DNA of 37,343 bases. Origin: Pseudomonas phage LUZ100. The stretch lies in the sequence record OP329100.1. One strand, 5' to 3'. Numbering within the stretch: the first letter of the stretch is position 1; the number at the start of each line of letters is the position of its first letter. Positions 4,081 to 36,860 of this stretch are shown here, one piece after another. A program made the translations under genes and the position numbers. A model generated the notes under the pieces. The model searched no databases, had not been told where the DNA came from, and saw only the letters and a list, made by a program, of their open reading frames with translations.

Positions 4081-4103
4081 AATTACCACACAGTCTTGGA
4101 GCA
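4081..4103 (+). promoter_or_regulatory. Phage RNAP promoter, family A copy 1 (AATTACCACACAGTCTT|GGAGCA), upstream of the RNAP gene
   Basis: Matches the 7-copy family A consensus; resembles K11/T7/T3 promoters (AATTA at -17..-13, CACA at -9..-6, purine-rich GGA start). Confidence 0.6.
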
Positions 4104-4160
4104 CCGAGAGGTGACCTCCGAGGCCGGTTCCTTAAAGCCAAACTCAGAGAGATCCAATAG

Positions 4161-6686
4161 ATGACTTCCATCATCACCAACCAACTGATTCAGGAAATTG
4201 AGAACAACCAAGAGTGGCAAGAGAAGTTCGACCGTCAGGTAGAACTTGAGGAGAAGATGCGAGGTATGGGCGTCGACCGTCACTGGTCGGAGGTAGCCAA
4301 GGCCAGGGAGCGTGGTCAGGAAACCAGCGTCCGCTCCGTCCGCCGACTGATGAACTCGTCAGTCGCCAAGATCGCAGAAGGCATCCGCCAGTTCATCGAG
4401 AGCTGCGAGTCCGGCAAGGCTGGCCGCAAGCACAGCGCATACCCACTGCTCAAGCAGATCGAACCCGAGTCCGCAGCCCTGATCACCGCACGGGTGGTAC
4501 TGGATGGCGTGGCCAAGGGTGACCTGCTGGTTCCCCTGGCTCGCCGCGTTGCGTCCCTGATCGAGGACGAGCTGGCCTTCCGTGAGTTCGCCAAGGCGGA
4601 CAAGAAGACCTACGACTGGCTGGTCAAGCGCGAGAAGCGAGTCAACGGCAGCAGCTACCGCCGCCAGCGGCTGACCATGCTGCACAACATGGAGGCCCGC
4701 AACATCGCATGGCAGGAGTGGACTGCCCGCGAGTCCCTGCTGGTCGGCTCCAAGCTGATCGAGATCATGACCGAGACCACCGGCCTGATCCAGAAAGTCA
4801 CCCGCACCGTGGATGTGAAGCGCCAGGAGGTAGCCATCGAGGCCACCCCTGAGACCATCGCCTGGATCAACGAGGAGAACAACCGCTGCGAAGCTCTCTC
4901 CCCGGTGTACCTGCCCACCATCATCCCGCCTCGCCCCTGGACTTCACCGTTCGAGGGCGGCTACTGGACTCCGCGTGTCCGCCGACTGGCCCTGGTCAAG
5001 ACCCACTCGAAGGGGTACTTGGAGGAGCTGGCCGAACACGACATGCCGGAAGTCTACGATGCGATCAACGCCATGCAGCACACCGCCTGGGCCATCAATG
5101 GCCGGGTGCTGGAGGTGGTTCGCAACCTGTGGAACAACGGTGCCACTCTGGGTGGTATCCCTGCGGCTGACGATCTGCCGCTCCCGCCGAAGCCCCTGTT
5201 CCTTGAGCAGGAGCTGCCCCGCGAGGAGTGGTCGGAGGATCAGGTGCGCCAGTTCAAGGAGTGGAAGCGCGAGGCAACCGACACCTATGCGTCCAACGCG
5301 AAGCTGAAGTCCCTGCGTCTGCAGTTCGCCAAGGTGTTGATGATTGCCGAGATGTTCGAGCATGAGGAGGAAATCTACTTCCCGCACCAGTTCGACTTCC
5401 GTGGCCGGGCCTACGCTGTGCCGATGTTCCTGAACCCCCAAGGCAGCGACATCGCCAAGGGTCTGCTGGAGTTCGCCAATGCGGTAGCGATCAACGACGA
5501 GGAAGGTGCCAACTGGCTGGCCATCCACGGTGCCAACAGCTACGGCTACGACAAGGTCTCCCTGGCCGAGCGTGTGCGCTGGGTGCAGGAGAACGAGGGC
5601 GAGATCCTGGCCTGTGCTGCTGACCCGTACAGCCACAGCATGTGGGCCAAGGCCGACAAACCGTTCCAGTTCCTGGCGTTCTGCATCGAGTGGGCAGAGT
5701 TCAAGCGCGAGGGCTACGGCTACCTGTCGACCCTGCCCATCGCAATGGACGGTAGCTGCAACGGGCTGCAGAACTTCTCGGCCATGCTGCGTGATGCCAT
5801 CGGCGGCGAGGCCGTGAACCTCGTGCCCCAGGAGAAACCGGCGGACATCTACCAGAAGGTGGCCGACCGTGTGGTGCTGCGTGTCGAGGCTGATGCCATC
5901 GGCCAGGACGAGGAGCTGGCGAAGCTGGCCCAGGGCTGGCTCAAGCACGGCATCAACCGCAAGGTGTGCAAGCGCCCGGTGATGACCCTGGCCTACGGCG
6001 CCAAGGAGTTCGGCTTCAAGACCCAGGTGTTCGAGGACACCGTCATGCCGTACAAGCTGAAGGCTGGCAAGGAGTTCCCCTGGGAAGGCTCCGGCTGGGC
6101 TGCCGCTGAGTACATGGGCAAGCTGATCTGGGAGTGTGTCGGTGAGGTGGTGGTCGCTGCTCGTCAGGCTATGGACTGGCTGCAGAAGGCTGCGCGTCTG
6201 GCCGCGAAGGAAGGACTGCCGGTGCGCTGGAACACCCCGGACAATCTGGTCGTGCTCCAGGCGTACCCGAAGATGCTGACCGAGCGCATCGACCTGACCT
6301 TCGGGGGCAGCCGTCACCTGCTCACCGTGGCAGTCAGCCCGACCACCGAGCTGGATCGCAACAAGCAAGCCAACGGGATCAGCCCGAACTGGGTTCACTC
6401 GATGGACGCCAGCCACATGCGGGCCACTGTCCGCCGCTGCTGGAACGAGGGGATGCGCAGCTTCTCCCTGATCCACGACAGCTACGGCACCCACGCCGGG
6501 AACGCCTGGGCCTTGGCCAAGTTCCTGCGGGAGGAGTTCGTCATCATGTACGAGGAGGATGTGCTGGAAGACTTCAAGCGAGAACTGGAGCGGCAGCTCC
6601 CCGAAGGATCGGTGCTCGATCCGCTACCCCCGAAGGGCAACCTGAACTTGGCTCTGGTGCTGGAGTCCGCGTTCTTTTTTGCCTGA
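4161..6686 (+). CDS. T7-like single-subunit DNA-dependent RNA polymerase (841 aa)
   Basis: Collinear with T7 gene 1 product: PRPWTSPFEGGYWTPRVRRLALVKTHSK, DMPEVYDAINAMQHTAW, FPHQFDFRGRAYA, AMDGSCNGLQNFSAML, HDSYGTH, C-terminus PKGNLNLALVLESAFFFA. Confidence 0.95.
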   Translation: MTSIITNQLIQEIENNQEWQEKFDRQVELEEKMRGMGVDRHWSEVAKARERGQETSVRSVRRLMNSSVAKIAEGIRQFIESCESGKAGRKHSAYPLLKQIEPESAALITARVVLDGVAKGDLLVPLARRVASLIEDELAFREFAKADKKTYDWLVKREKRVNGSSYRRQRLTMLHNMEARNIAWQEWTARESLLVGSKLIEIMTETTGLIQKVTRTVDVKRQEVAIEATPETIAWINEENNRCEALSPVYLPTIIPPRPWTSPFEGGYWTPRVRRLALVKTHSKGYLEELAEHDMPEVYDAINAMQHTAWAINGRVLEVVRNLWNNGATLGGIPAADDLPLPPKPLFLEQELPREEWSEDQVRQFKEWKREATDTYASNAKLKSLRLQFAKVLMIAEMFEHEEEIYFPHQFDFRGRAYAVPMFLNPQGSDIAKGLLEFANAVAINDEEGANWLAIHGANSYGYDKVSLAERVRWVQENEGEILACAADPYSHSMWAKADKPFQFLAFCIEWAEFKREGYGYLSTLPIAMDGSCNGLQNFSAMLRDAIGGEAVNLVPQEKPADIYQKVADRVVLRVEADAIGQDEELAKLAQGWLKHGINRKVCKRPVMTLAYGAKEFGFKTQVFEDTVMPYKLKAGKEFPWEGSGWAAAEYMGKLIWECVGEVVVAARQAMDWLQKAARLAAKEGLPVRWNTPDNLVVLQAYPKMLTERIDLTFGGSRHLLTVAVSPTTELDRNKQANGISPNWVHSMDASHMRATVRRCWNEGMRSFSLIHDSYGTHAGNAWALAKFLREEFVIMYEEDVLEDFKRELERQLPEGSVLDPLPPKGNLNLALVLESAFFFA

Positions 6687-6736
6687 TACAATCCACTAGC
6701 GCATAGGTTGCGCATGTGTAACGTCGAGCCAGGCGG

Positions 6737-6759
6737 GATTACCACACAGGTATGGAAGA
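6737..6759 (+). promoter_or_regulatory. Phage RNAP promoter, family A copy 2 (GATTACCACACAGGTAT|GGAAGA)
   Basis: Family A consensus; tandem pair just after the RNAP gene, analogous to T7 phi1.1A/phi1.1B. Confidence 0.6.
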
Positions 6760-6783
6760 CCGCGCTGGCTCCACCCCCAAGGC

Positions 6784-6806
6784 GATTACCACACAGGTAT
6801 GGAAGA
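6784..6806 (+). promoter_or_regulatory. Phage RNAP promoter, family A copy 3, 47 bp from copy 2
   Basis: Identical 26-mer attaccacacaggtatggaagaccgc to copy 2. Confidence 0.6.
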
Positions 6807-6838
6807 CCGCCCACCCACCAGATCACGAGGAGAACTTC

Positions 6839-6964
6839 ATGAGCGCACTCGACAGAGCAATCACCTACTGGAGCGAAGACATGCCGATCCCCTTGGATCT
6901 GGCCATGGAGCTGGCCAGCGAGGGCTACGACGTGGAAGCCCTTGAGGACTTCTATCGCCAGTAA
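6839..6964 (+). CDS. Very acidic small protein (41 aa; MSALDRAITYWSEDMPIPLDLAMELASEGYDVEALEDFYRQ)
   Basis: RBS gaggagaacttcATG; first gene after the RNAP and tandem promoters (T7 gene 1.1/1.2 position); 11 D/E against 2 K/R. Confidence 0.5.
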   Translation: MSALDRAITYWSEDMPIPLDLAMELASEGYDVEALEDFYRQ

Positions 6965-7010
6965 CTATCCACAAACGCATTTAACCCACGACAACTGTGA
7001 GGACAACTGA

Positions 7011-7667
7011 ATGACCGACAAGAAAGCCCGCAACCCCCGTTACGTCACCCAGGTTGGTGTTGCCATCTACCCGCACCTCGTTGAGCCGGACACCAAGTTC
7101 AACGCCGAGGGCGAGTACAAGGTGAAGCTGCGCCTGTCCCCGGACTCGGTAATCACCGACGCCAAGGGCAAGCGTGTTGCTGACGTGCAGAGCTTCATCG
7201 ACGAGATGATGGGCAAAGCCCTGGAGAAGGCGCAGCAGGAGAACAAGGGCAAGATCAAGGAGGCCGATGCGCCCTACGAGATCGACGACGAGACCGGCGA
7301 AGTGCTGGTCAACTTCAAGCTGAAGGCCACCGGCAAGACCCGCGATGGCAAGGAGTTCACCCAGAAGCCCGCGCTGTTCGACGCCAAGGGCAAGCCCGCT
7401 GAGGTCAAGGGTGTCTGGGGCGGCAGCAAGATCAAGGTTTCGTTCGAGGTCGTGCCGTTCTACACCAAGCTGATCGGTGCCGGTGTCTCGCTACGCCTCA
7501 AGGCCGTGCAGATCATCGAGCTGGTAGCCGGTGGCAACGGCGGTTCCGCTGACAGCTACGGCTTCGGTGAGGAAGAAGGCTTCGAGGCTGAGGACGAAGC
7601 AGCCGACAACGGGTTCAGCTCCGACGACGAAGGCGGCTCCGCACCGGCTGACGACGAGGACTTCTGA
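7011..7667 (+). CDS. ssDNA-binding protein, T7 gp2.5-like (218 aa)
   Basis: Position after RNAP; acidic C-terminal tail ending ...ADDEDF (terminal Phe as in gp2.5); RBS gagga. Confidence 0.75.
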   Translation: MTDKKARNPRYVTQVGVAIYPHLVEPDTKFNAEGEYKVKLRLSPDSVITDAKGKRVADVQSFIDEMMGKALEKAQQENKGKIKEADAPYEIDDETGEVLVNFKLKATGKTRDGKEFTQKPALFDAKGKPAEVKGVWGGSKIKVSFEVVPFYTKLIGAGVSLRLKAVQIIELVAGGNGGSADSYGFGEEEGFEAEDEAADNGFSSDDEGGSAPADDEDF

Positions 7668-8113
7668 TGGCTGCTCCCCGAGAGGCCGGGCTTCGGCTCG
7701 GCTTCCGGTCGGGACTTGAGGAGAAGATCGCCCGAGAACTGGATGCCCACGGCATCGAGGTTCAGTACGAAACCGAACAGATCCGCTACGTCAAACCCGC
7801 CCGCGAAGCCAAGTACACCCCCGACTGGATACTGCCCAACGGAATCATCGTCGAGACCAAAGGCAGGTTCGTCGTCGAAGACCGCCAGAAACACCTGATC
7901 ATCAAGGAGCAGCACCCCGGCCTGGACGTGCGCTTCGTCTTTTCCAACTCCCGTACCCGCATCAGCAAGAACAGCAAGACCACCTACGCAATGTGGTGTG
8001 AGAAGTACGGGTTCCTGTTTGCCGACAAGTCCATCCCCGAGGCGTGGCTCAAAGAGCCGCACAGCCCGGAGCGTTGGGCTGCCCTGGAGAATGCACGAGT
8101 CAAGAAGAAATGA
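7667..8113 (+). CDS. Endonuclease I (T7 gp3-like Holliday junction resolvase)
   Basis: FRSGLEEKIARELD...YTPDWILPNGIIVETKG...KHLIIKEQHPGLDVRFVFS...FADKSIPEAWLKE collinear with T7 endonuclease I; start overlaps SSB stop (ATGA). Confidence 0.9.
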   Translation: MAAPREAGLRLGFRSGLEEKIARELDAHGIEVQYETEQIRYVKPAREAKYTPDWILPNGIIVETKGRFVVEDRQKHLIIKEQHPGLDVRFVFSNSRTRISKNSKTTYAMWCEKYGFLFADKSIPEAWLKEPHSPERWAALENARVKKK

Positions 8114-8622
8114 ACCGCGAGATTGACACCCTGATCATCCACACCGCCGCGACCAAGGCGACTGCGGACATAGGTGCCGTCGACATCGACAAGTGGCACC
8201 GCGCCCGTGGTTGGCTGGGCTGTGGCTACCACTTCGTTATCCGCCGCAACGGAACCATCGAGTCCGACGAGTTGGGTCACCGCTGCCGTCCGCTGGCCCA
8301 GGCCGGTGCCCATGTCGGTGACTGCGGCCCTGGCTGGAACAAGCGCAGTATCGGCATCTGTCTGGCCGGTGGTATCGACGCCAACGGTAAGGCCGAGAAC
8401 AACTACACCCCCGAGCAATGGAAGTCCCTGGAAGAAGTGGTGCTGTCCCTGCTCGAACGCTTCCCCTCCATCAAGACCATCGGTGGTCACCGCGACCTGA
8501 TCCGCAAGACTGGCGCACCGCCGAAGGACTGCCCGTGCTTCAACGTGAAGGACTGGTTCGAGAAGGAAGTGAAGCCGAAGTACCCCGAGGCCGCGTACAT
8601 CCAGGCCGTGAAGTACATCTGA
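8101..8622 (+). CDS. N-acetylmuramoyl-L-alanine amidase (T7 lysozyme gp3.5-like)
   Basis: IIHTAATKA...WHRARGWLGCGYHFVIRRNGTIE...HVGDCGPGWNKRSIGICLAGGID...CPCFNV matches the T7 lysozyme zinc-amidase signature; ATG 8101 overlaps the gp3 end. Confidence 0.85.
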   Translation, partial: QEEMNREIDTLIIHTAATKATADIGAVDIDKWHRARGWLGCGYHFVIRRNGTIESDELGHRCRPLAQAGAHVGDCGPGWNKRSIGICLAGGIDANGKAENNYTPEQWKSLEEVVLSLLERFPSIKTIGGHRDLIRKTGAPPKDCPCFNVKDWFEKEVKPKYPEAAYIQAVKYI

Positions 8623-8624
8623 CC

Positions 8625-8647
8625 AATTACCACACAGGTATGGAAGA
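8625..8647 (+). promoter_or_regulatory. Phage RNAP promoter, family A copy 4 (AATTACCACACAGGTAT|GGAAGA), phi3.8 analogue
   Basis: Family A consensus, immediately after the amidase gene. Confidence 0.6.
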
Positions 8648-8650
8648 CCG

Positions 8651-8688
8651 CCCCCGGTATGCCCAGCGCTGCCGGGGGTTTCTGTTTC
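8651..8688 (+). terminator. GC-rich hairpin plus U-tract at +10 of promoter A4 (attenuator or terminator)
   Basis: cccccgg-N14-ccggggg followed by tttctgtttc. Confidence 0.4.
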
Positions 8689-8718
8689 AAGACCCACGAC
8701 AACTGTGAGGAGAACCCC

Positions 8719-8961
8719 ATGACCCACACCCAAATCCGTGCTCTGTCCCCGCAATGTGAACTGATCCTGAACCACCTGATGGCTGGCCACACGATCACCC
8801 AGCGCTCGGCCCTGATGGACTTCGGCGTGATGGCTCTGCCGCGCCGCATCGCTGACCTCAAGGAGCGTGGCTACGACATCGTGTCCGTGATGGAGCACAA
8901 CAAGCTCACCGGCCAGCGCTATGCCCGCTACTCCCTGAAAGCCCAGAAGCGCCGCGCATAA
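8719..8961 (+). CDS. Small winged-helix DNA-binding protein (HTH_39-like), 80 aa
   Basis: RBS gaggagaacccc-ATG; pattern ILNHLMAGHTITQRSALMDFGVMALPRRIADLKERGYDI resembles the phage HTH_39 family. Confidence 0.5.
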   Translation: MTHTQIRALSPQCELILNHLMAGHTITQRSALMDFGVMALPRRIADLKERGYDIVSVMEHNKLTGQRYARYSLKAQKRRA

Positions 8962-8971
8962 GGAGGCCCGC

Positions 8972-9172
8972 ATGATCCAGCTCAACAAGATCCTCAAGTC
9001 CTTCCAGAAGACCATCGACCAGCTCGAACAACTGACCGCCGCCAACAACGTGGAGGTCAGCCGCAACACCGAGCAGATCGACCGACTGCAGGAGAAGAAC
9101 CTGATCCTGATTGCAGAAGCCCAGGCTGCCAAGGAGACCGCCGAGAACCTGAAAGCCCTGATCGGCCACTGA
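8972..9172 (+). CDS. Small coiled-coil protein (66 aa)
   Basis: RBS taaggaggcccgcATG; heptad-like charged/hydrophobic pattern; followed by a terminator. Confidence 0.55.
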   Translation: MIQLNKILKSFQKTIDQLEQLTAANNVEVSRNTEQIDRLQEKNLILIAEAQAAKETAENLKALIGH

Positions 9173-9216
9173 CCTGACCCGACGATTCACCGGGTCAGCT
9201 ACCAACGAACACCCAT

Positions 9217-9248
9217 AGCCCGCCTCTGAGCGGGCTTCGTCTTTTCTG
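9217..9248 (+). terminator. Rho-independent terminator (agcccgc-ctctga-gcgggct + tcgtcttttct)
   Basis: 7-bp GC stem, 6-nt loop, U-rich tail; a second hairpin ctgacccg...cgggtcag at 9173-9198. Confidence 0.6.
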
Positions 9249-9259
9249 GAGGACAGAAC

Positions 9260-9916
9260 ATGAGCAAGCAACTGACTGTATGCGGCGTGGACATCAAGCA
9301 GGACGCCGAGGGCCGCTACTGCCTGAACGATTTCCACAGGGCTGCAGGTGATGACCAGAAGCACCGACCCAAGTATTGGTTGGAGAACTGCAACACCCAA
9401 GCCCTCGTAGCAGAAATTGAAAAGGGCGGATTCCCGCCTGTTTCGGTTAAGCCCGGACGCAGCGGCGGCACCTTCGTGGTGAAGGAACTGGTCTACGCCT
9501 ACGCCATGTGGATCAGCCCGAAGTTCCACCTCGAAGTCATCCGCTCCTACGACCGGCTGGCCACCGAGGGCGTGGCTGTCCACCAGAACGCAGCCGCTGA
9601 TGTGCTGGCCAACCCGCTCAAGTACATGCGCTCCCTGATCGAACAGGCAGAGAAGCTCCAGGCCGAGAACGAGGCCATGCACAAGGAGCTGAACCTCCTG
9701 ACTGTCGACGAGTACCGGGCGCTGACTCACCGCTACTTCAGCCACGGTTACAAGGTGCGCCTTGGCCGAGAGGCTGCCCGCGTCATGCGTGAGCAAGGGG
9801 GTCACCCTGAGCGTCAGGAGCGAACCATCCGCTCCGGTAAGGGAGAGCGAGTCGTGTCGGTCGGCGTCTACACCCGCGCTGCCTTGGAGCAAGCAGAACG
9901 TGAGCTGAGTGCATGA
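9260..9916 (+). CDS. KilA-N domain protein (218 aa)
   Basis: N-terminal LNDFHRAAG...KHRPKYWLENCNTQALVAEIE matches the KilA-N DNA-binding domain pattern; RBS ctggaggacagaacATG. Confidence 0.55.
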   Translation: MSKQLTVCGVDIKQDAEGRYCLNDFHRAAGDDQKHRPKYWLENCNTQALVAEIEKGGFPPVSVKPGRSGGTFVVKELVYAYAMWISPKFHLEVIRSYDRLATEGVAVHQNAAADVLANPLKYMRSLIEQAEKLQAENEAMHKELNLLTVDEYRALTHRYFSHGYKVRLGREAARVMREQGGHPERQERTIRSGKGERVVSVGVYTRAALEQAERELSA

Positions 9917-11568: not shown

Positions 11569-11590
11569 CTATCCACTAGCGCATAGGTAC
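11567..11590 (+). promoter_or_regulatory. B element copy 7 (AACTATCCACTAGCGCATAGGTAC), 18 bp upstream of the DNAP start
   Basis: One of 9 copies of the ACTATCCACYAGCGCATAGG family; function unresolved (see findings). Confidence 0.4.
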
Positions 11591-11607
11591 TCCCATGAGA
11601 GGCCCAG

Positions 11608-13404: not shown

Positions 13405-13616
13405 TGAACCGCAAGACCCTGATCGTCCTGCAGCGAGCCTACATCGAGCCATTCACCGTGCAGAGCAACTACGCACGGGAGAACGCAGTGCGCGTGGCCG
13501 AGCTGGCAAGCCGAGGACTACTGACCACCCATGCTGGCCATGGGCTTTACAGCAAACACTGGCGCGTTACCCCAGCGGGGCGCGCTCTCTTGGAGTACAC
13601 CGGAGGAGAATCCTGA
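13404..13616 (+). CDS. Small hypothetical protein, possible wHTH (70 aa)
   Basis: ATG overlaps DNAP stop (ctgATGa); segment VRVAELASRGLLTT resembles an HTH recognition helix. Confidence 0.45.
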   Translation: MNRKTLIVLQRAYIEPFTVQSNYARENAVRVAELASRGLLTTHAGHGLYSKHWRVTPAGRALLEYTGGES

Positions 13617-16281: not shown

Positions 16282-16392
16282 GACCTACCACGGACTCACC
16301 CTGGACAATGGGCGTGATGCCCGACTGACAGCCCTCGCAGGAGACCTTCTGCGGGGGTTTTATCTTTCTGGGGGTGAGAATGACCCCCGGTC

Positions 16393-16415
16393 AATTACCA
16401 CACAGTCTTGGAGGA
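16393..16415 (+). promoter_or_regulatory. Phage RNAP promoter, family A copy 5 (AATTACCACACAGTCTT|GGAGGA), phi6.5 analogue
   Basis: Family A consensus; followed by an A-rich leader shared with the right-end copy. Confidence 0.6.
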
Positions 16416-16442
16416 CAGGGAAAAAACTCATAGGGATAACTT

Positions 16443-16640
16443 ATGGATCAACTACCTGTGATTCCTAAAGACCTACTTGATGCTCTGGATCAGCGGTTCC
16501 CTGATCGCTGTCCTGAGCCTGAGTGGTCTGATCGTGAAATCTGGATGCGCGTCGGTGAGCGCCGGGTAATCCGGTTGCTCCGTCGCGTGTATGAGCAACA
16601 GCAAGAGAACGTGTTGGAGAACACCCATGTGCTTCGCTAA
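16443..16640 (+). CDS. Small hypothetical protein (65 aa), gp6.5 position
   Basis: First ORF after promoter A5; weak RBS aggga. Confidence 0.4.
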   Translation: MDQLPVIPKDLLDALDQRFPDRCPEPEWSDREIWMRVGERRVIRLLRRVYEQQQENVLENTHVLR

Positions 16641-16830: not shown

Positions 16831-16837
16831 GGTAGCC

Positions 16838-17290: not shown

Positions 17291-17293
17291 CCA

Positions 17294-17578: not shown

Positions 17579-17590
17579 CCGAGGAGGCGT

Positions 17591-19283: not shown

Positions 19284-19295
19284 GAGGAGAACCAA

Positions 19296-20072: not shown

Positions 20073-20080
20073 GGTGAACC

Positions 20081-20278
20081 ATGATCGAAACTGTCCTCGA
20101 AAACTGGGACGGCATCCTGGCAGTCATCGTGGCTGCCCATGCCCTGGCCCTGGCCATCGTCAACCTGACCCCGACCCCTCGTGATGACGAGATCGTGGGC
20201 AAGGTCTACAAGGTCGTCGAAGCGCTCGCTGGCGTTGTCACCCGCAAGGCCAAGGAGCTGCCCGGCGAGAAGCTGTGA
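20081..20278 (+). CDS. Small single-TM membrane protein (65 aa), holin-like or antiholin-like, directly upstream of the spanins
   Basis: Hydrophobic stretch ILAVIVAAHALALAIV with a charged C-terminus; RBS ctgaggtgaaccATG. Confidence 0.4.
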   Translation: MIETVLENWDGILAVIVAAHALALAIVNLTPTPRDDEIVGKVYKVVEALAGVVTRKAKELPGEKL

Positions 20279-20511
20279 AGGCGCTCCTCAAGGCGCTCCA
20301 GTCGATCCTCCAACTAGCCACCCTGGTGCTCACCCTCCTGCGTGACGACAAGTTGCGCCAGGAAGGTGAGCGCAAGGTGCGCCTGGAGGCGATGGAGGCC
20401 GAGCAACAGCGCCGTGGAGAAGCCCATGAGATTGACCTGCAGGTGGCTCGTGGTGGCCTGTCTGACGCTGATCTTGAGCGGATGCGCCGCTACCAACGCG
20501 CCAGTCGATGA
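20275..20511 (+). CDS. i-spanin (Rz-like): N-terminal TM plus charged coiled-coil (78 aa)
   Basis: GTG start overlapping the previous stop; ILQLATLVLTLL TM, then R/E-rich helix; contains the o-spanin start in another frame. Confidence 0.55.
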   Translation: MKALLKALQSILQLATLVLTLLRDDKLRQEGERKVRLEAMEAEQQRRGEAHEIDLQVARGGLSDADLERMRRYQRASR

Positions 20512-20617
20512 GTGCTCCTGGGTGAAGCCCATCAGTTGGCATGAAGACGACACCCCGACTACCAAGCAGGAGGTCTTCGCCCACAACCTCAAGTGGGAGA
20601 AGTTCTGCCTCCGGTAA
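20426..20617 (+). CDS. o-spanin (Rz1-like outer-membrane lipoprotein), overlapped with the i-spanin gene
   Basis: MRLTCRWLVVACLTLILSGC: positive n-region, hydrophobic core and lipobox L-S-G-C; starts in the +1 frame inside the i-spanin and extends past it. Confidence 0.65.
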   Translation: MRLTCRWLVVACLTLILSGCAATNAPVDECSWVKPISWHEDDTPTTKQEVFAHNLKWEKFCLR

Positions 20618-20638
20618 TTACCACACAGTTATGGAGAA
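20616..20638 (+). promoter_or_regulatory. Phage RNAP promoter, family A copy 6 (AATTACCACACAGTTAT|GGAGAA), phi10 analogue
   Basis: Family A consensus; transcript begins with perfect hairpin GGAGAACaagatcGTTCTCC (20633-20652). Confidence 0.6.
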
Positions 20639-20830
20639 CAAGATCGTTCTCCGATCTCTCCTGTTGGTTGGTACTTCGGGGCTGGCTTCATGTCGGCCTC
20701 GCTTTTTCCCAGGATTCCATCGCCCCCAAGCCTCTGGCCGGGTTCCCCGTCACCCGCGTATCTAAGGCCACGCTCAAATCGTGGGGCCGCTAGGCAGCTT
20801 GCTCCGTCTGCCGAATCACGGAGCTTTCAC

Positions 20831-20906
20831 TGGCATGTAGCTCAGATGGTAGAGCACCCGGCTGTTAACCGGGCGGTCGCAGGTTCGAGTCCTGCCGTGC
20901 CAGCCA
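20831..20906 (+). tRNA. tRNA-Asn (anticodon GTT), 76 nt
   Basis: TGGCATGTAGCTCAGATGGTAGAGCACCCGGCTGTTAACCGGGCGGTCGCAGGTTCGAGTCCTGCCGTGCCAGCCA: cloverleaf with 7-bp acceptor stem (one G-U), anticodon loop CTGTTAA, T-loop TTCGAGT, CCA end. Confidence 0.85.
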
Positions 20907-21191: not shown

Positions 21192-22145
21192 ATGGCTGAC
21201 GCTATCGTTTCGCGTCTGGGTCAGATCAACGGCAGCGGCGCTGTCGATGCTCTGTTCCTGAAAGTGTTTGCTGGTGAAGTTCTGACCAGCTTCGAGAAGA
21301 CCAACGTGATGATGGGCAAGCACCAAGTGCGAACCATCGCCAACGGCAAGTCTGCTCAATTCCCGGTAATGGGCCGCGCGAGCGCCTACTACCACACTCC
21401 GGGCCAGGAGATTCTGGGCGGCACCCTGAAGCACGCCGAGAAGATCATCACCATTGATGAACTCCTGATCGCGCCGACCTTCATCGCCAACATCGACGAG
21501 GCGAAGAACCACTACGACGTTCGCTCGGTTTACACCCGCGAGATGGGTGCCAAGCTGGCGAACACCATGGACAAGCACATCCTGCAAACTGGTGTGCTGG
21601 CTGCCCGTACCGCCAAGACCATCAACGACCCGGATCAGTTCGGTGGCACCACCATCAACAACGTGGCCGCTGATAACGGCGATGCCCTGGCAGACGCCAT
21701 GTTCGAGGCTGCTCGCATCCTCGACGAGAAGGACGTTCCGGCTGACGAGCGGTACCTGTTCGTGCGCCCGGCTCAGTTCTACGCCCTGGCGAAGTCGACC
21801 AAGGTTCTGAACCGCGACTGGGGTGGCGAAGGTTCTTACGCTGGCGGCAACGTGATCCGCGTTGCTGGCATCACCATCGTCAAGACCAACAACCTGCCGA
21901 ACACCGTTGTCGCTGCAGGTTCCCTGGACGCTGGCACTGGCGACAAGTACGCCGGTGACTTCTCCAAGACTGTCGGTCTGGTGATGCACCCGTCGGCAAT
22001 CGGCACTGTGAAGCTGCTCGACCTGGGCATGGAGTCCGAGTACCAGATCAGCCGTCAGGGCACCCTGATGGTTGCTAAGTACGCGGTCGGCCACGGCGTT
22101 CTGCGCCCGGAAGCTGCAGTGGAACTGTCCACCGCTGTTGCGTAA
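21192..22145 (+). CDS. Major capsid protein, T7 gp10A-like
   Basis: LFLKVFAGEVLTSFEKT, GKSAQFPVMGR, HAEKIITIDELL, NHYDVRSVYT, GHGVLRPEAA collinear with T7 gp10A. Confidence 0.95.
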   Translation: MADAIVSRLGQINGSGAVDALFLKVFAGEVLTSFEKTNVMMGKHQVRTIANGKSAQFPVMGRASAYYHTPGQEILGGTLKHAEKIITIDELLIAPTFIANIDEAKNHYDVRSVYTREMGAKLANTMDKHILQTGVLAARTAKTINDPDQFGGTTINNVAADNGDALADAMFEAARILDEKDVPADERYLFVRPAQFYALAKSTKVLNRDWGGEGSYAGGNVIRVAGITIVKTNNLPNTVVAAGSLDAGTGDKYAGDFSKTVGLVMHPSAIGTVKLLDLGMESEYQISRQGTLMVAKYAVGHGVLRPEAAVELSTAVA

Positions 22146-22146
22146 G

Positions 22147-22168
22147 CAACTATCCACCATCGCATAGG
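22147..22168 (+). promoter_or_regulatory. B element copy 8 (AACTATCCACCATCGCATAGGA), between capsid stop and gp11 RBS
   Basis: Member of the 9-copy B family. Confidence 0.4.
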
Positions 22169-22178
22169 AGGGCCAGAA

Positions 22179-22787
22179 ATGGCTCTCCTATTTTTTTCTT
22201 ATGGGGGTTCCATGATTTCTCCAACCACTGAGCTGGAAGCCATCAACACGATGCTCTCCACCATCGGTGAAGCCCCGATCAGTACCGTCGAGGACAGTGG
22301 CGTTATCGACGCCGTAATGGCCCGCCAGATCCTCCGTTCGGTTGACCGGGAAGTCCAGGCCAGGGGCTGGCACTGGAACACCGATAAGGGCTACCCGCTG
22401 ACCCCGAACCAAGAGGGTGAATGCGAGCTACCCAACGGGGTGCTCCGCTGCGACACCGTCACTCCTGACGACCAGATCGACGTGGTGGTGCGAGGCAAGC
22501 GCCTCTACGACCGCCGCAACCACACCTACCAGATCAACAAGATGGTACGGGTGGACATGGTGACCCAGCTTCCCTTCGAGGAGCTGCCGGAAGCCGCCCG
22601 CCAGTACATCACCATCCGTGCCGCCCGCATCTTCCAAGAGCGTGTCCTGGGTTCGCTGGAGCTTTCCAAGTTCTCGACCATCGACGAGACCCGCGCCCTG
22701 GTGACCCTCAAGGAGATGGAAGCAGACACGGCTGACTACAACATCCTGTCCGACAACTACTCGGTCTTCCGGGTACTGGATCGCTAA
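22179..22787 (+). CDS. Tail tubular protein A, T7 gp11-like
   Basis: RBS aggaggGCCAGAAATG; MLSTIGEAPISTVE and RGWHWN parallel T7 gp11 ILASIGEPPVSTLE and RGWTFN. Confidence 0.85.
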   Translation: MALLFFSYGGSMISPTTELEAINTMLSTIGEAPISTVEDSGVIDAVMARQILRSVDREVQARGWHWNTDKGYPLTPNQEGECELPNGVLRCDTVTPDDQIDVVVRGKRLYDRRNHTYQINKMVRVDMVTQLPFEELPEAARQYITIRAARIFQERVLGSLELSKFSTIDETRALVTLKEMEADTADYNILSDNYSVFRVLDR

Positions 22788-22789
22788 CC

Positions 22790-26240: not shown

Positions 26241-26250
26241 GAGGTAACCA

Positions 26251-27963: not shown

Positions 27964-27971
27964 GGAATTGA

Positions 27972-31604: not shown

Positions 31605-31625
31605 CAACCATTCGTTCAACGCACA

Positions 31626-31657
31626 GGGGCGGCCTTCGGGTCGCCCTTTTTCTTTGT
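31626..31657 (+). terminator. Rho-independent terminator with UUCG tetraloop between gp16 and the tail fiber gene
   Basis: ggggcggcc-TTCG-ggtcgccc then tttttctttg. Confidence 0.6.
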
Positions 31658-31670
31658 CTGGAGGAAAAGC

Positions 31671-33623
31671 ATGGCTCTTGCACGAGTCACCTATACCCAG
31701 AGCGTCAACGGTAACCGCAACTTCTCGGTGCCTTTCCCGTACCTGTCCAAGGATCACGTCAAGGTCACCGTGAACGGCGCAGCCGTGACGTTCTCCTGGC
31801 TGTCGGCCTCGTCCATCCAGTTGACCACGGCACCGGCCATCGGCGCCAAGGTCGAGGTTCGCCGGGTAACCGAGCGCAACTCTCTGCTGGTGGACTTCGC
31901 GGACGGCTCCACGCTCACCGAAAGCCAGCTCGATCTGGCCAGCAAGCAGAACTTCTATCTGTCCCAGGAAGCGGATGACCTGGCTGTCGAATCCAATGGT
32001 CTGGCGAACAATGCAGTGAGCATCGCCAATGGTGCTACCACTACGGCCAATGAGGCGAAGACCCTCGCCAACAGCGCGGTGAGTACCGCAAACACAGCGA
32101 ACTCCACTGCCAACCAAGCCAAGACCTCTGCTGATAGCGCTGTGGTAACTGCCGGTAACGCCGCCAACACCGCTTCATCTGCAGTGGTGACTGCCAACGG
32201 AGCGGTTCAAACCGCCCAACAGGCTGACTCTAAGGCTGGCTCCGCCGTGACAACCGCTTCCCAAGCGAATAGCCGTGCAGCCAGCGCGGAATCCAAAGCT
32301 GATTCGGCAGTAGCCACCGCCAATGGGGCTAACACGAAGGCAGACGCCGCCACGAACACAGCGAACACCGCACTGAGTACCGCGAACACCGCACTGAGCA
32401 ATTCGGAAGCCGCTGTGTCTCTAGCTAACGCGGCGTCGATCAGCTCCGACGAAGCTCAGGCATCCTCAAGCGCTGCCCAGGCTGCTGCCCAGGCTGCTGC
32501 CCAGGACGCCCAAACAGCGGTGAACACTGCTCTAGGGTTAGAGTCAACAGTCAATCAGGTTCTGCAGGATGTCCAAGCGATTGCCGGTGGTGACCTCTCG
32601 GACTTCGCAAAGAACTCCGAGAACTTGTCCGGCCTAACTAATAAGGCAGCGGCAAGAAGTAACTTGGGCCTTGGTCAGGTAGACAACACCCGTGACTTGG
32701 ATAAGCCGATCTCGAACGCTACACAACAAGCGCTCGACACAAAAGCTGAATCCGTTCATGTACACACCAAGTCTCAGATCACTGACTTCACTGTAAGTTG
32801 GGACGAGGTCACAGGTAAACCGTCAACTTTCACCCCGAGCAGTCACAGTCATGCCGCTACGGACTTGCCGGGTTCCGTGCGGGGTCTGGTAGCGTCCTAC
32901 GGGAGCGGTTGGGGAGATCCAAATAGCTCAGTAGACCACATCCTACTTTCCAATCACGCGAATACCCCAAATTCGTCGTTCTACTGGCACATCTACACGA
33001 GCTTCTACTCGTCGATTAGCTCGACAGCGAACCGCTCGCAGTTGGCCATCCAATATAACGGCGGCAATCAAGTATACGCCCGCTCGTGTTTCAACTCGAC
33101 GTGGACGCCTTGGGTGCGTTTGGATGTTGGCGATTGGGATACGCTGCTGAATAAGCCGAGCAGTTTTACACCCTCGGCTCACTCTCACGTATGGGCGGAT
33201 ATTACCAACCCTCCGGCACAAGCGACTCGGTGGCCTACTTGGACAGAAGTAACCAGTAAGCCCACTACCTTCCCCCCGAGTAGCCACACGCACGGCGTAA
33301 ATGACATTGCCACAGCATTTACCGCTGCGGGTTTGCAGAGTCTCGGAACTGACGGTTACCAGCAGTTCCCTGGTGGGTTAATCCTGCAGTGGGGTAGAAC
33401 TGCCAGCATAGCTGGTGATTCGAGCACCACCATTACCTTTCCCATCACTTTCCCTTCAGTTGTCGCAGTGGCCCATGCAACGCCACTTGTAACCGGCAAC
33501 GCGGTCACCAGCGACAACTGGGGCATGGTAGAGCCGATTAGCACCTCCCAACTACGTGTGTACCGTGGGTTAAAAGGTGTCAGCCAGAAAAACCTTGTTT
33601 ATTGGACGGCTATTGGATACTGA
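31671..33623 (+). CDS. Tail fiber protein: gp17-like N-terminal adaptor domain fused to repeat-rich and low-GC C-terminal domains
   Basis: N-terminus VTYTQSVNGNRNFSVPFPYL...VEVRRVTERNSLLVDFADGS parallels T7 gp17 (LTYQLDGSNRDFNIPFEYL...ELRRVTSTTDRLVDFTDGS); then Ala/Ser/Thr/Asn-rich repeats; C-terminal part has different base composition. Confidence 0.9.
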   Translation: MALARVTYTQSVNGNRNFSVPFPYLSKDHVKVTVNGAAVTFSWLSASSIQLTTAPAIGAKVEVRRVTERNSLLVDFADGSTLTESQLDLASKQNFYLSQEADDLAVESNGLANNAVSIANGATTTANEAKTLANSAVSTANTANSTANQAKTSADSAVVTAGNAANTASSAVVTANGAVQTAQQADSKAGSAVTTASQANSRAASAESKADSAVATANGANTKADAATNTANTALSTANTALSNSEAAVSLANAASISSDEAQASSSAAQAAAQAAAQDAQTAVNTALGLESTVNQVLQDVQAIAGGDLSDFAKNSENLSGLTNKAAARSNLGLGQVDNTRDLDKPISNATQQALDTKAESVHVHTKSQITDFTVSWDEVTGKPSTFTPSSHSHAATDLPGSVRGLVASYGSGWGDPNSSVDHILLSNHANTPNSSFYWHIYTSFYSSISSTANRSQLAIQYNGGNQVYARSCFNSTWTPWVRLDVGDWDTLLNKPSSFTPSAHSHVWADITNPPAQATRWPTWTEVTSKPTTFPPSSHTHGVNDIATAFTAAGLQSLGTDGYQQFPGGLILQWGRTASIAGDSSTTITFPITFPSVVAVAHATPLVTGNAVTSDNWGMVEPISTSQLRVYRGLKGVSQKNLVYWTAIGY

Positions 33624-33632
33624 GGAGCATTT

Positions 33633-34043
33633 ATGTACTTCTACTCCCCAACAACAAAAGGGTTTTACCCAGCGGAGTTTGCCTCGAACTATAAAGAGGC
33701 TGATGCGTGGCCTAGCGATTGTGTTGAGGTCACGCTTGAAGAGCACCGTGCTCTTATTGAAGGCCAAAACGGTGAGACTGAGATCGCTTTCGATGCGACG
33801 CTAGGTAAGCCTGTTTTGAGGAAGCGGGTTCCGCCTCCCTTGGAGGAGCGGCGGGCCTTCATCGAACGGCAGCGTCGTAACGCCTACGCAGACCCTCAGA
33901 CGGGAAGCGACCGTCTTTTCGCTGAGGCAAACCGGATGCAGCTCACAGGCGAGACCGGATGGGAGGAGCTTCTGGAGAAAGCCAAGGCCCGCTACACGGA
34001 GATTAAGGAGACGCTCCCTTGGCCTTCGGAGGCTTCTGAATGA
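33633..34043 (+). CDS. Tail fiber assembly protein / chaperone (Tfa-like), 136 aa
   Basis: N-terminal MYFYSPTTKGFYPAEF...DCVEVTLEEHRALIEGQ matches the tail fiber assembly protein start pattern (Y-F-Y/S...GFY...V.V..eeh..L); low GC. Confidence 0.6.
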   Translation: MYFYSPTTKGFYPAEFASNYKEADAWPSDCVEVTLEEHRALIEGQNGETEIAFDATLGKPVLRKRVPPPLEERRAFIERQRRNAYADPQTGSDRLFAEANRMQLTGETGWEELLEKAKARYTEIKETLPWPSEASE

Positions 34044-34267
34044 CCGTCCGCCACGCTGCTGAGCAAGTCGCTCTCGTCACCACTCCCGTACCGGTGGGTG
34101 TCTCGGGCATGACTATGTTCGGGATCACCCTGCAGGACTGGGTGTTCATCGGCACCGCGATGCTGCTGGTGTTCCAGATCATCGTGTTCCTGCCCAAGGT
34201 ACGGGATGCCTTCAAATCCCTGTTCGGTAAGGAGAAACCCAATGACCGCACCGAAAGAGCTTCTTGA
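34040..34267 (+). CDS. Holin, T7 gp17.5-like (class II)
   Basis: PVPVGVSGMTMFGITLQDWVFIGTAMLLVFQI parallels T7 holin PIVGTGVADVSARLFFGLSLNEWFYVAAIAYTVVQI; canonical position before small terminase. Confidence 0.8.
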   Translation: MTVRHAAEQVALVTTPVPVGVSGMTMFGITLQDWVFIGTAMLLVFQIIVFLPKVRDAFKSLFGKEKPNDRTERAS

Positions 34268-34475
34268 GGCTCTCCATGCGGCGGTCGGTGAGAAGCTCCT
34301 GGCTCGCATCCAGTCTGGAGAGGCGACTGCCTCGGATTTCGCCCAGGCCATCAAGTTCTTGAAGGACAACGGCATCGAGGCAATCCCGACTGCCGGTAAC
34401 TCCCTGGAGCGACTGACCAATTCGTTGACCAGCCAGCTCCCGTTCACCGATCCCAACGATCCCGCATACCACTAA
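34242..34475 (+). CDS. Terminase small subunit (gp18-like), 77 aa
   Basis: RBS ggtaaggagaaacccaATG; position between holin and large terminase; helical small protein. Confidence 0.55.
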   Translation: MTAPKELLEALHAAVGEKLLARIQSGEATASDFAQAIKFLKDNGIEAIPTAGNSLERLTNSLTSQLPFTDPNDPAYH

Positions 34476-34510
34476 CCAAACCGCCTAGAAGGCCCGTAGA
34501 GCGTCTCCAG

Positions 34511-34532
34511 CAATCCACCAGTGCATAGGTAC
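34511..34532 (+). promoter_or_regulatory. B element copy 9 (CAATCCACCAGTGCATAGGTAC) upstream of the HNH and terminase genes
   Basis: Member of the B family. Confidence 0.4.
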
Positions 34533-34557
34533 AGGGTGGGTTCGCTGGCGGCGCTCT

Positions 34558-35010
34558 ATGCGTTTCTGTGGAGCTTACAGCCCTATGAAAATCTGTACCC
34601 AATGCAAACAAAACAAGCCCCTAGATGGATTTCATAAACACCCTAATGGCACTTACGGAGTGGCTTCAAAGTGCAAGGATTGCCTGAAGTTCGCTCATAG
34701 GAAGAAGTCAGTACACAAAGTCCTACTGAACAACGCAAAGAACAGGGCGCGTAATAGAGGTCTGGACTTTTCTCTGTCCAGCGAGTGGTTGGCGGCCAAG
34801 TTGGAGAAAGGAGTGTGTGAAGTAACCGGAATCAGGTTTGAAGGTTACTGCTCCTCGTTCGCCCCCTCCCTCGACAGGAAAGACCCTGCCAAAGGCTACA
34901 CCGAAGATAACACTCAAGTTGTCGTTTGGATTTATAACCGCTGCAAAAACAGCGGGAGTCATGAAGATGTACTCCGCATGGCTTTAGCTTTGTCTGGGGG
35001 TATCCACTGA
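34558..35010 (+). CDS. HNH endonuclease (possible alternative start at 34585)
   Basis: Cys-rich N-terminus (CTQCKQNKPLDGFHKH...CKDC) and HNH core PSLDRKDPAKGYTEDNTQVVVWIYNRCKN; markedly lower GC than its neighbours. Confidence 0.7.
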   Translation: MRFCGAYSPMKICTQCKQNKPLDGFHKHPNGTYGVASKCKDCLKFAHRKKSVHKVLLNNAKNRARNRGLDFSLSSEWLAAKLEKGVCEVTGIRFEGYCSSFAPSLDRKDPAKGYTEDNTQVVVWIYNRCKNSGSHEDVLRMALALSGGIH

Positions 35011-36704
35011 TGGATAGCAAAAAAGGTCACAAACTCCCAGAGGGGCACCCACTCTACGACTTTCGCAACTTCCTGTTCGTCGTGTGGGAGTTCCTGTGGA
35101 ATGCCGGGGCCATCACGGCAGCAAAGCCAGACCCCACCCCAATACAATACGACATCGCTCACTTCCTCCAGCACGGCCCTCGACGCAAGGTCATCGAGGC
35201 GTTCCGGGGGGTGGGCAAGAGCTGGATCACCTCGGCCTACGTCTGCTGGCGACTCCTGCTCGATCCCAACCTCAACTTCCTCGTGGTCTCGGCCTCGAAG
35301 GATCGCGCTGACCAGTTCTCGACGTTCACCAAGCGGCTGATCTTCGAGCTGCCCATCCTGGCCCACCTGCGGCCCAGGGACGGCCAACGCAACTCCAACA
35401 TCATGTTCGACGTTGGCCCGGCTGGTATCAGCCACTCCCCTTCCGTGAAGTCCGTGGGTATCACCGGCCAGCTCACTGGTAGCCGTGCTGACGAGATCAT
35501 CGCGGACGACGTTGAGTCTTTGAACAACTCGCTCACCCAGGTGATGCGCGACCAGCTCTCCGAGCGGATCAAGGAGTTCGACGCGATCATCAAGCCTGGT
35601 GGGCGCATCACGTTCCTGGGCACGCCTCAGACCGAGATGTCGATCTACAACCAGCTCACCGAGCGTGGCTACCAGATCCGCGTCTGGCCAGCTCGTATCC
35701 CAGAAGACCCCGACAAGTACCAGGGCCGTCTGGCTCCCTACATCATGGACATGATCGCCCGTGGTGCTAAGACCAGGGAGACCACCGATCCCAAGCGGTT
35801 CAGCTCGGAGGACTTGCTGGAGCGTGAAGCCTCCTACGGTCGATCCGGCTTCGCCCTGCAGTTCATGCTGGACACCAGCCTGAGCGACCAAGAGAAGTAC
35901 CCGCTGCGGCTACAAGACCTGATCGTCATGCCCCTGGATACCCGCATGGCCCCCGTGAAGGTGGTCTGGTCGTCTGGCCCGGAGTACGTCCTGAACGATG
36001 TCCCGTGTGTGGGCATGGGTGGTGATCGGTTCTACCGGCCCATGTGGACTGCCCAGGACATGGCCGAGTACACCGGCTCGGTGATGTTCATCGACCCGTC
36101 CGGTCGCGGTAAGGACGAGACCTCCTACGCGGTCGTGAAGATGCTCCACGGGTGGCTCTACTTGGTCGACTGCGGGGGTTTCACCGGGGGCTACAACGAC
36201 GAGACCCTCAAGAGCCTGTGCCTCGTGGCAGCCAAGCACTCGGTCAATCTGGTGCTGATCGAGCCCAACTTCGGTGACGGTATGTTCCTCGAACTCCTCA
36301 AGCCCTGGATGACTCGGTTCCACCCGGTCACCCTGGAGGAAGCCCCAAGGGCATCCATGCAGAAGGAGAAGCGGATCATCGACGTACTGGAGCCTGTGAT
36401 GAACCAGCACCGTCTGGTGATCGACAAGGCGCTCGTGAAGAAGGACTACGACTCAGCCCCTGATCCCAAGTACAGCCTGTTCTACCAGCTCACCCGAATC
36501 ACCAAGGACAAGGGCGCATTGATCCACGATGACCGCCTGGATGCGCTTGCAGGGGCCGTTGCGTACTGGGTGGAGCAGATGGGTAGGGATACCGAGAAAG
36601 CCGCTCAGAGCCACCGGGAGAGGCTCCTAGACGCTGAACTGCAGAAGTTCGCACGCAGCGTCCTGGGCTATTCGCCCCAGGCTGACACATGGATGGTTAT
36701 GTAG
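35010..36704 (+). CDS. Terminase large subunit (gp19-like)
   Basis: PDPTPIQYDIAHFLQHGPRRKVIEAFRGVGKSWITSAYVCW...LVVSASKDRADQFS parallels T7 gp19; ATPase Walker A/B then nuclease domain. Confidence 0.9.
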   Translation: MDSKKGHKLPEGHPLYDFRNFLFVVWEFLWNAGAITAAKPDPTPIQYDIAHFLQHGPRRKVIEAFRGVGKSWITSAYVCWRLLLDPNLNFLVVSASKDRADQFSTFTKRLIFELPILAHLRPRDGQRNSNIMFDVGPAGISHSPSVKSVGITGQLTGSRADEIIADDVESLNNSLTQVMRDQLSERIKEFDAIIKPGGRITFLGTPQTEMSIYNQLTERGYQIRVWPARIPEDPDKYQGRLAPYIMDMIARGAKTRETTDPKRFSSEDLLEREASYGRSGFALQFMLDTSLSDQEKYPLRLQDLIVMPLDTRMAPVKVVWSSGPEYVLNDVPCVGMGGDRFYRPMWTAQDMAEYTGSVMFIDPSGRGKDETSYAVVKMLHGWLYLVDCGGFTGGYNDETLKSLCLVAAKHSVNLVLIEPNFGDGMFLELLKPWMTRFHPVTLEEAPRASMQKEKRIIDVLEPVMNQHRLVIDKALVKKDYDSAPDPKYSLFYQLTRITKDKGALIHDDRLDALAGAVAYWVEQMGRDTEKAAQSHRERLLDAELQKFARSVLGYSPQADTWMVM

Positions 36705-36780
36705 AACATGGATGTGACTGAGGGGAGCAGGAGGCTCCTCTCGGTCTCTTTGCAAGATCGCTGCAAGATCGACGACGTTC

Positions 36781-36803
36781 AATTACCACACAGTTCTGGA
36801 GGA
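36781..36803 (+). promoter_or_regulatory. Phage RNAP promoter, family A copy 7 (AATTACCACACAGTTCT|GGAGGA), phiOR analogue at the right end
   Basis: Family A consensus; A-rich leader about 80% identical to the leader of copy 5. Confidence 0.6.
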
Positions 36804-36860
36804 AAGGGGAAAAAGAATAGGGAAAAACTTATTGATTACTTATAGATACAGACACTAGAT

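Follow-up and report, generated by a model that had tools for sequence, protein, structure and literature searches.

The DNA of sequence record OP329100.1, 37,343 nucleotides long and here called the window in its entirety, carries a 23-base motif in seven copies, here referred to as family A. The question that the motif raises is whether it is, as an earlier note on this DNA had claimed, the promoter of an RNA polymerase encoded by the phage itself. Our in silico analysis supports this claim: a T7-type polymerase is encoded in the window, the motif falls in register with known promoters of the T7 family, its copies are placed largely as in T7, and its central block co-varies with the specificity loop of the polymerase among related phages. 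On these grounds, the seven family A sites are very probably promoters of the phage's own T7-type RNA polymerase.

We numbered the motif from -17 to +6, with +1 at the G of TGGA. Scanning the sequence confirmed the seven copies previously reported at 4081, 6737, 6784, 8625, 16393, 20616 and 36781, all on the + strand, while dinucleotide-preserving shuffles yielded 0 matches to the 23-mer. A weight matrix derived from the seven sites gave them scores of 36.1 to 39.7 bits; the next best site on either strand of the genome scored 10.4 bits, and shuffled sequence reached a maximum of 14.3 bits with the same matrix. Because this runner-up falls within the shuffled range, we count exactly seven family A sites, without weak extras. 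In particular, the weight-matrix scan of both strands of the genome detected no weaker copies, for example before the tail-fibre or internal-virion genes (compare phi13 and phi17 of T7). The sites and their predicted transcription starts are as follows.

4081-4103, + strand: copy 1, AATTACCACACAGTCTTGGAGCA; predicted start G 4098; 63 nt 5' of the RNA polymerase ATG.
6737-6759, + strand: copy 2, first of a tandem pair directly after the polymerase gene; predicted start 6754.
6784-6806, + strand: copy 3, second of the tandem pair; predicted start 6801; 38 nt 5' of a small open reading frame (ORF; ATG 6839).
8625-8647, + strand: copy 4, after the amidase gene; predicted start 8642.
16393-16415, + strand: copy 5; predicted start 16410; directly after a strong terminator-like hairpin.
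20616-20638, + strand: copy 6; predicted start 20633.
36781-36803, + strand: copy 7; predicted start 36798; after the large terminase gene, towards the right terminal repeat.

The invariant core of the seven copies is ATTACCACACAG-N3-TGGA-N2-A. The degenerate consensus proposed in the earlier note is exact for two of them (8625 and 36781), and the other five each deviate from it at one position: 6737 and 6784 begin with G, 4081 and 16393 carry TC, not T[A/C/T], at -4/-3, and the initial transcript of 20616 would read GGAGAA. The copies are all co-directional with the genes and, as had been stated, lie between them, except that copy 20616 shares its first 2 nt with the TAA stop of a small o-spanin-like ORF; copy 8625 begins 3 nt past the amidase stop codon. 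The spacing of the tandem pair 6737/6784 is indeed 47 bp, compared to 75 bp for phi1.1A/B of T7. A host sigma-70 promoter was ruled out, since family A shows neither a -35/-10 pattern nor a conserved upstream flank. In the literature searched, the motif string matched only unrelated primer sequences, and a collection scan with ATTA-N7-CAGTATTGGA, in which the spacing was 7 N whereas the motif has 5, returned chance single matches only.

The shared layout claimed for family A and known promoters could be reproduced: the motif aligns in gap-free register with the annotated promoters of K11, T3 and T7, with AATTA at -17 to -13, CACA at -9 to -6 and GGA from +1. Its three-part layout can be written as AATTA / CCACA (-12 to -8) / CA (-7/-6) / GGARSA start. 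Family A thus has in common with K11 (AATTAGGGCACACTATAGGGAGA) and the T7/T3/SP6 family the 23-bp length, the AATTA, a 5-nt block at -12 to -8, the CA at -7/-6 and a purine-rich start with G, and copy 8625 is identical to K11 phiOL at 15 of 23 positions when compared by hand. In contrast, the specificity block is CCACA here, but GGGCA in K11, CGACT in T7, ACCCT in T3 and GGTGA in SP6, which is in agreement with the suggestion that the specificity of this phage differs from all four.

The placement of the copies, said to mirror that of T7, matches the annotated T7 map one for one for copies 2 to 7. In T7, phi1.1A/B follow gene 1, phi3.8 lies 19 nt past the amidase gene, phi6.5 follows the exonuclease block, phi10 precedes the capsid gene with Tphi after it, and phiOR follows gene 19 (large terminase). 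Copy 1 (4081), located directly 5' of the polymerase gene, has no T7 counterpart. The two phages also differ in copy number (7 here, 17 in T7), and the window, unlike T7, has no copy before the internal-virion or tail-fibre genes.

We then related the motif to the polymerase, which can be aligned with T7 RNA polymerase from end to end, at about 40% identity.

4161-6686, + strand: gene for a T7-type single-subunit RNA polymerase of 841 amino acids; PHROG 414, E=2e-281; T7 RNA polymerase structures, E=6e-159, residues 25-841.
6285-6329, + strand: core of the specificity loop, RIDLTFGGSRHLLTV, residues 709-723, aligned with T7 746-760.
4410-4436, + strand: SGKAGRKHS, residues 84-92, corresponding to the AT-rich recognition loop of T7 (93-101); conserved across the clade.

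Within the specificity loop, R709 corresponds to T7 R746 and D711 to T7 N748 and T3 D749; judging from the alignment, R718 is most probably the equivalent of T7 R756. A recognition code for such residues has been obtained by direct coupling from T7-like polymerase-promoter pairs mined from published phage genomes (Zhu et al., Nucleic Acids Research [NAR] 2025, PMC11880802). In this code, T7 positions 746, 748, 756 and 758 pair with bases -7, -11/-10, -9 and -8, respectively; 748D goes with -11C and 748N or 748K with -11G, and in 91% of the pairs 746R is accompanied by -7C. All applicable rules are obeyed here, R709 going with C-7, D711 with C-11 and R718 with C-9, and the window and its relatives follow the same residue-base logic as the published pairs. 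Unlike those pairs, however, the present ones come from a clade without a cultured member: the best match to the polymerase among cultured phages in GenBank is that of Rhizobium phage RHEph01 (47% identical), and the 30 best database matches are all at or below 47%. Clade-wide conservation is common to the SGKAGRKHS loop and the AATTA at -17 to -13.

The pairing was then examined in related phages. Fifty-three stretches of IMG/VR contigs contain the exact core, some of which are 88-97% identical to the window at the DNA level, while others are only about 72% identical and yet preserve the 12-mer ATTACCACACAG letter-perfect within diverged flanks. Further relatives were found by searching with the polymerase, and the comparison covers about 10 related uncultured phages (designated by L numbers) whose polymerases are 63-79% identical. 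At the syntenic sites (pre-polymerase, tandem post-polymerase and post-amidase), these carry AATTA-[5 nt]-CAG-TATT-GGA. The AATTA and the start region are constant, and the -12 to -8 block is lineage specific, each block being paired with a lineage-specific loop.

Loop RID..RHL, block CCACA: the window, L169, L319, L322 and L323/L324; polymerases 64-96% identical to that of the window.
Loop RVK..ERQ, block GGTGA (the SP6 block): L170 and L317; L170 has the loop sequence RVKLTFGGVERQYTV and promoters of the type AATTAGGTGACAG...
Loop RVK..QHK, block GGGGA: L171.
Loop RIK..NHR, block GTGAA: L173.
Loop RIK..VHY, block GGTTG: L325.
Loop RAK..RID, block GG(A/T)CG, then CAC: L172.
Loop RIN..RVQ, block C(G/A)ACT: L188, that is, the block of T7 with the Asn748/Arg756/Gln758 of T7; loop sequence RINLTFNGLRVQLSV, promoters of the type AATTACGACTCAG...
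Loop QIQ..RIT, block CCACG, then A at -7: L321.

Some 10 loop classes map in this way onto some 10 block classes, and the pairing is without exception. Every class with Arg at the 756 position has C at -9, and every class without this Arg has another base there. Furthermore, the sole loss of Arg746, in L321, coincides with the sole loss of C at -7. In a neighbour-joining tree of the polymerases calculated with the loop masked, the CCACA classes fall on several separate branches, interleaved with others; since CCACA is thus paraphyletic, loop and block must have switched jointly and independently several times, and CCACA is probably the ancestral block. The pairing also allowed a blind prediction. 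Given their loop (K..RID), L174 and L175, whose polymerases are only 46% identical, were expected to have L172-like promoters, and they indeed carry (A/G)G(A/G)CG-CAC at the equivalent sites. Two of the IMG/VR contigs, 3300035494_000018 (L168, CCACA) and 3300035494_000004 (L173, GTGAA), come from one metagenome sample, indicating that specificity classes coexist.

Family A is not the only repeat in the window. A second one, family B, approximates CTATCCAC-N3-CGCATAGG over about 20 nt.

Family B, + strand, sites (spans): 378 (376-394), 579 (577-595), 3941 (3939-3957), 3997 (3995-4013), 6691 (6689-6707), 6967 (6965-6983), 11571 (11569-11587), 22152 (22150-22168) and 34513 (34511-34529).
Weaker family B sites: 13195, 14659 and 35000.

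It might therefore be asked whether family B is the real promoter of the phage polymerase and family A something else. Family B is intergenic and confined to the + strand (exact CTATCCAC occurs 8 times on this strand and 0 times on the other), it ends in CATAGG, reminiscent of the TATAGG of T7, and its copies lie upstream of the pre-polymerase promoter, directly past the polymerase stop and ahead of the genes for SSB, DNA polymerase, tail and terminase; the polymerase gene is also among those that it precedes. It is nevertheless essentially constant in relatives with differing loops (L170, L171, L172, L050 and L001), whereas family A tracks the loop, and we ruled it out as a phage promoter on this basis. 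Read in the T7 register, moreover, it would place G at -7 and T at -9, although R709 and R718 are conserved. Two of its copies fall within the spacers of perfect sigma-70-type promoters (TTGACA-N17-TAAGAT), and another overlaps the 5' arm of the post-capsid terminator. We thus give this exchange of roles hardly any credence. Marginally more credit, though still very little, is due to the idea that family A is bound by another phage protein, be it the MarR-like regulator, the winged-helix protein encoded at 8719-8961 or the KilA-N protein, and serves as an operator or as a packaging or replication signal, its co-variation with the polymerase reflecting the overall divergence of lineages. Several DNA-binding proteins are indeed encoded in the genome, and shared descent is a partial confounder of the co-variation between lineages. 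However, the 23-mer is not palindromic, and its co-variation obeys the residue-base rules of the T7 family, recurs in unrelated branches and has recreated the T7 and SP6 blocks alongside the matching loop residues; the loop-based prediction succeeded in a 46%-identical relative, and the placement is that of the T7 promoters site for site. Least probable of all is a signal acting on RNA, for processing or ribosome loading, on long transcripts started elsewhere. This would be in line with the location of family A on the + strand only and upstream of genes, and in some relatives an ATG follows the GGAG at +1 to +4 at a distance of 8-12 nt, so that this GGAG could also serve as a Shine-Dalgarno sequence. 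Yet the distance from a family A copy to the next start codon ranges from 33 nt to >550 nt, no gene follows copy 7, folding reveals no conserved secondary structure of the motif itself, and an RNA signal would have no reason to follow the DNA-recognition loop of a polymerase.

The interpretation of family A as the promoter of the phage polymerase has its own difficulties. The region from -5 to -1 reads G-(G/T)-(T/C)-(A/T/C)-T (G-K-Y-H-T) and is not TATA-like; as it lacks the CTATA of T7, T3, K11 and SP6, the exact start nucleotide is fixed by the register alone. CTATA is typical of the enterobacterial group and does not define the wider promoter family. Terminator-like hairpins are present 10-45 nt 3' of the predicted starts 8642 and 20633 and could attenuate these transcripts. 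The alignment of the polymerases contains a one-residue gap near T7 754-759, and because this gap can be placed differently, the equivalences given for 756 and 758 are the likeliest reading and not the sole one. Finally, L173 combines K at the 748 position with T at -11, meaning that the residue-base code is not strictly one-to-one.

Family B, for its part, is a candidate for the operator of the MarR-like repressor, for an RNA processing site like the RNase III sites of T7 or for a DnaA-box-like site (core TATCCAC); an action on RNA is thus among its possible roles. The copy after the polymerase gene makes up the 5' side of a hairpin; the opposite arm varies among relatives, with the pairing kept. 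In L172 family B is a near-perfect palindrome, CTATCCA-TAAG-TGGATAG.

The window represents a complete T7-like genome (37.3 kb) bounded by direct terminal repeats of 244 bp (1-244 and 37100-37343). Its recognisable genes all lie on the + strand and follow the T7 order. The left part consists of early ORFs followed by the genes for the MarR-like regulator, integrase, RNA polymerase, SSB, endonuclease I and amidase; the middle comprises those for the winged-helix protein, KilA-N, primase/helicase, DNA polymerase, thymidylate synthase, exonuclease, kinase and MazG; and the right part runs from portal, scaffold, a small lysis cassette and capsid to tail fibre, HNH endonuclease and large terminase. 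The elements relevant to transcription and lifestyle are listed below.

368-396 and 569-597, + strand: sigma-70-like early promoters (TTGACA-N17-TAAGAT), the presumed entry points of the host RNA polymerase.
2321-2650, + strand: MarR-like winged-helix regulator gene; HTH_24 1.2e-6 (above the cut-off), MarR_2 5e-5 (below the curated cut-off).
2711-3829, + strand: integrase gene, between the MarR-like and polymerase genes; Phage_integrase 2.9e-25.
3960-3979, + strand: terminator-like hairpin with T-run, between the integrase gene and copy 1.
About 4016-4049, + strand: second hairpin, 12 bp, upstream of copy 1.
16330-16359, + strand: terminator-like hairpin, 13 pairs and T-run, closing the DNA-metabolism block just 5' of copy 5.
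22164-22191, + strand: terminator-like hairpin, 12 pairs and a T7 tract, directly after the capsid gene, in the position of Tphi of T7.

By analogy with the solved T7 promoter complex, we infer polymerase binding, melting, the start site, the relative strengths and the order of events. The polymerase would bind the duplex from -17 to -5, its N-terminal AT-rich recognition loop reading AATTA (-17 to -13) in the minor groove and its specificity loop reading -12 to -7 in the major groove through D711/C-11, R718/C-9 and R709/C-7. The pyrimidine- and AT-rich KYHT at -4 to -1 would then melt, and RNA would begin at the G of TGGA, 18 nt after the first A of the motif. In the resulting programme, the host RNA polymerase would transcribe the early, MarR-like and integrase genes from the two left-end sigma-70-like promoters, and slight read-through of the two hairpins would provide the first polymerase mRNA. 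The polymerase would next amplify its own gene from 4081, copy 1 being predicted to drive this gene. The pair 6737/6784 together with 8625 would serve the DNA-metabolism genes, and 16393 and 20616 the structural genes, with 20616 also covering a tRNA-Asn and the Tphi-like terminator acting after the capsid gene. Lastly, 36781 would give a right-end transcript into the terminal repeat.

A promoter in front of the polymerase gene has a precedent. The phage-specific promoters of Pseudomonas phage LUZ100 that were mapped by ONT-cappable-seq include phi1, which lies before the polymerase gene and was proposed to give positive feedback under MarR control (PMC10134795). Copy 1 matches LUZ100 phi1 in placement; the likeness is one of arrangement. 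The sites here are predicted from sequence, whereas those of LUZ100 were mapped. The LUZ100 polymerase itself is distant and does not appear among the 30 best database matches mentioned above. As for the other features of a LUZ100-type arrangement, a MarR-like regulator gene and an integrase gene lie directly 5' of the polymerase gene, and the putative promoter at 4081 precedes it with the hairpins at 3960-3979 and about 4016-4049 upstream. Possible repressor sites near 4081 are the two family B sites upstream (3941 and 3997), with none found downstream; family B is strongly strand-biased. MarR sites have reportedly been described in temperate T7-like phages by Boeckman et al. 2022 (Virology 568:86). 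The T7-like phage is probably temperate. Pre-polymerase copies at the syntenic position, frequently as a tandem with a spacing of about 40 bp, exist in L169, L171, L173, L170/L317, L319, L322-L324 and L172, and also in the 46%-identical L175.

In kind, family A is a standard T7-family promoter set. The approach and the recognition code were already known (PMC11880802), as was a polymerase gene with its own promoter (LUZ100, PMC10134795). New are the CCACA block, the G-K-Y-H-T in place of CTATA, the uncultured lineage and the series of closely related natural specificity variants. The analysis provides a transcription map of a probably temperate T7-like lineage from sequence alone, and a new polymerase-promoter pair (AATTACCACACAG-KYHT-GGA with the loop RIDLTFGGSRHLL) for orthogonal expression systems. 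Among the relatives, a few loop residues retune -12 to -8 on a scaffold that is 63-79% identical, a natural series suited to testing the T7-family code. The predicted pre-polymerase promoter behind terminators and beside MarR-like and integrase genes would represent a second, independent and clade-wide case of the LUZ100 type, which supports self-amplified polymerase expression as part of the lysis/lysogeny switch of temperate T7-like phages.

A more speculative thought, which we consider unlikely though well short of negligible, is that the joint loop/promoter switches reflect diversifying selection for transcriptional orthogonality, in the manner of an immunity-group system built on polymerase specificity. 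Behind it stands the finding of at least nine specificity classes among such similar polymerases, two of them in sample 3300035494. If this were true, a superinfecting relative of the same specificity could activate a prophage already resident in the cell, or the prophage could hijack the newcomer, because the polymerase gene lies behind its own promoter, in positive feedback, beside MarR-like and integrase genes. The clade would then constitute a natural panel of mutually orthogonal polymerase-promoter pairs.

No close relative at the DNA level was found among GenBank phages, and a search of genome contigs for the host returned only metagenome bins and distant prophage-like matches (Rhodopseudomonas 38%, Hypericibacter 43%). 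A proteobacterial host is suggested by the G+C content of the DNA (60.6%) and by the cultured phages nearest to this one, which are phages of Rhizobium, Ralstonia and Limnohabitans. A full-length tRNA-Leu (TAA)-like sequence is located at 2658-2743 on the minus strand, between the MarR-like and integrase genes. It probably serves as the attachment site through which the phage would integrate into a tRNA-Leu gene of the host. For the integrase, the ATG near 2755 is probably the real start. By inspection, we assigned a lysis cassette to 20081-20617, with a holin-like ORF (20081-20278), an i-spanin-like ORF (20275-20511) and an overlapping o-spanin-like frame that ends at 20617 and carries the lipobox LSGC. 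The cassette lies between the scaffold and capsid genes, whereas in T7 it is at the right end.

Regarding the predicted transcripts, some close relatives have three tandem copies after the polymerase gene. The small ORF downstream of copy 3 precedes the SSB, endonuclease and amidase genes, and copy 5 heads the structural block (small ORFs, portal, scaffold). Copy 4 is followed by a leader with a stable hairpin and a conserved box, by the winged-helix gene and then by the KilA-N, primase/helicase and DNA polymerase genes. The predicted copy 6 transcript contains, in order, a 7-bp 5' hairpin, a terminator-like hairpin, a tRNA-Asn gene (anticodon GTT, 20831-20906, + strand; found by ARAGORN, Rfam tRNA 71 bits) and the major capsid gene (21192-22145). 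Being located between the 20616 promoter and the capsid gene, the tRNA-Asn would be transcribed by the phage polymerase within a capsid leader of about 560 nt. At the right end, 36776-36836 (copy 7 with its leader) is a 61-nt paralogue, 77% identical, of 16388-16448 (copy 5 with its leader), in which the ATG of the downstream gene is altered to ATT.

The leader starting at 20633 was the only one to fold clearly better than shuffles (z = -3.4), with its 7-bp hairpin at the extreme 5' end and a second strong hairpin; the folding energies of the other predicted leaders did not differ from those of shuffles. Strong hairpins with T-rich runs occupy 20677-20701 (about 45 nt past 20633) and 8650-8678 (about 10 nt past 8642), and the one after 8625 holds its position in every specificity class. 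Possible functions of these hairpins are attenuation, stabilisation of the 5' end or termination directed at the host polymerase alone. The conserved box, AGACCCACGACAACTGTGAGGA(G/C)AAC, is found at 8690-8712 and again at 6985-7007, just 5' of the winged-helix and SSB start codons, and is near-unchanged in relatives that are otherwise only about 72% identical; it may be a shared translation-initiation or regulatory element. In L170 (2896), L171 (7390) and L173 (3102), the second post-polymerase promoter begins only 10-12 nt before the next ATG, and because of this proximity the transcripts would be near-leaderless, with the GGAG at +1 to +4 doubling as the Shine-Dalgarno sequence.

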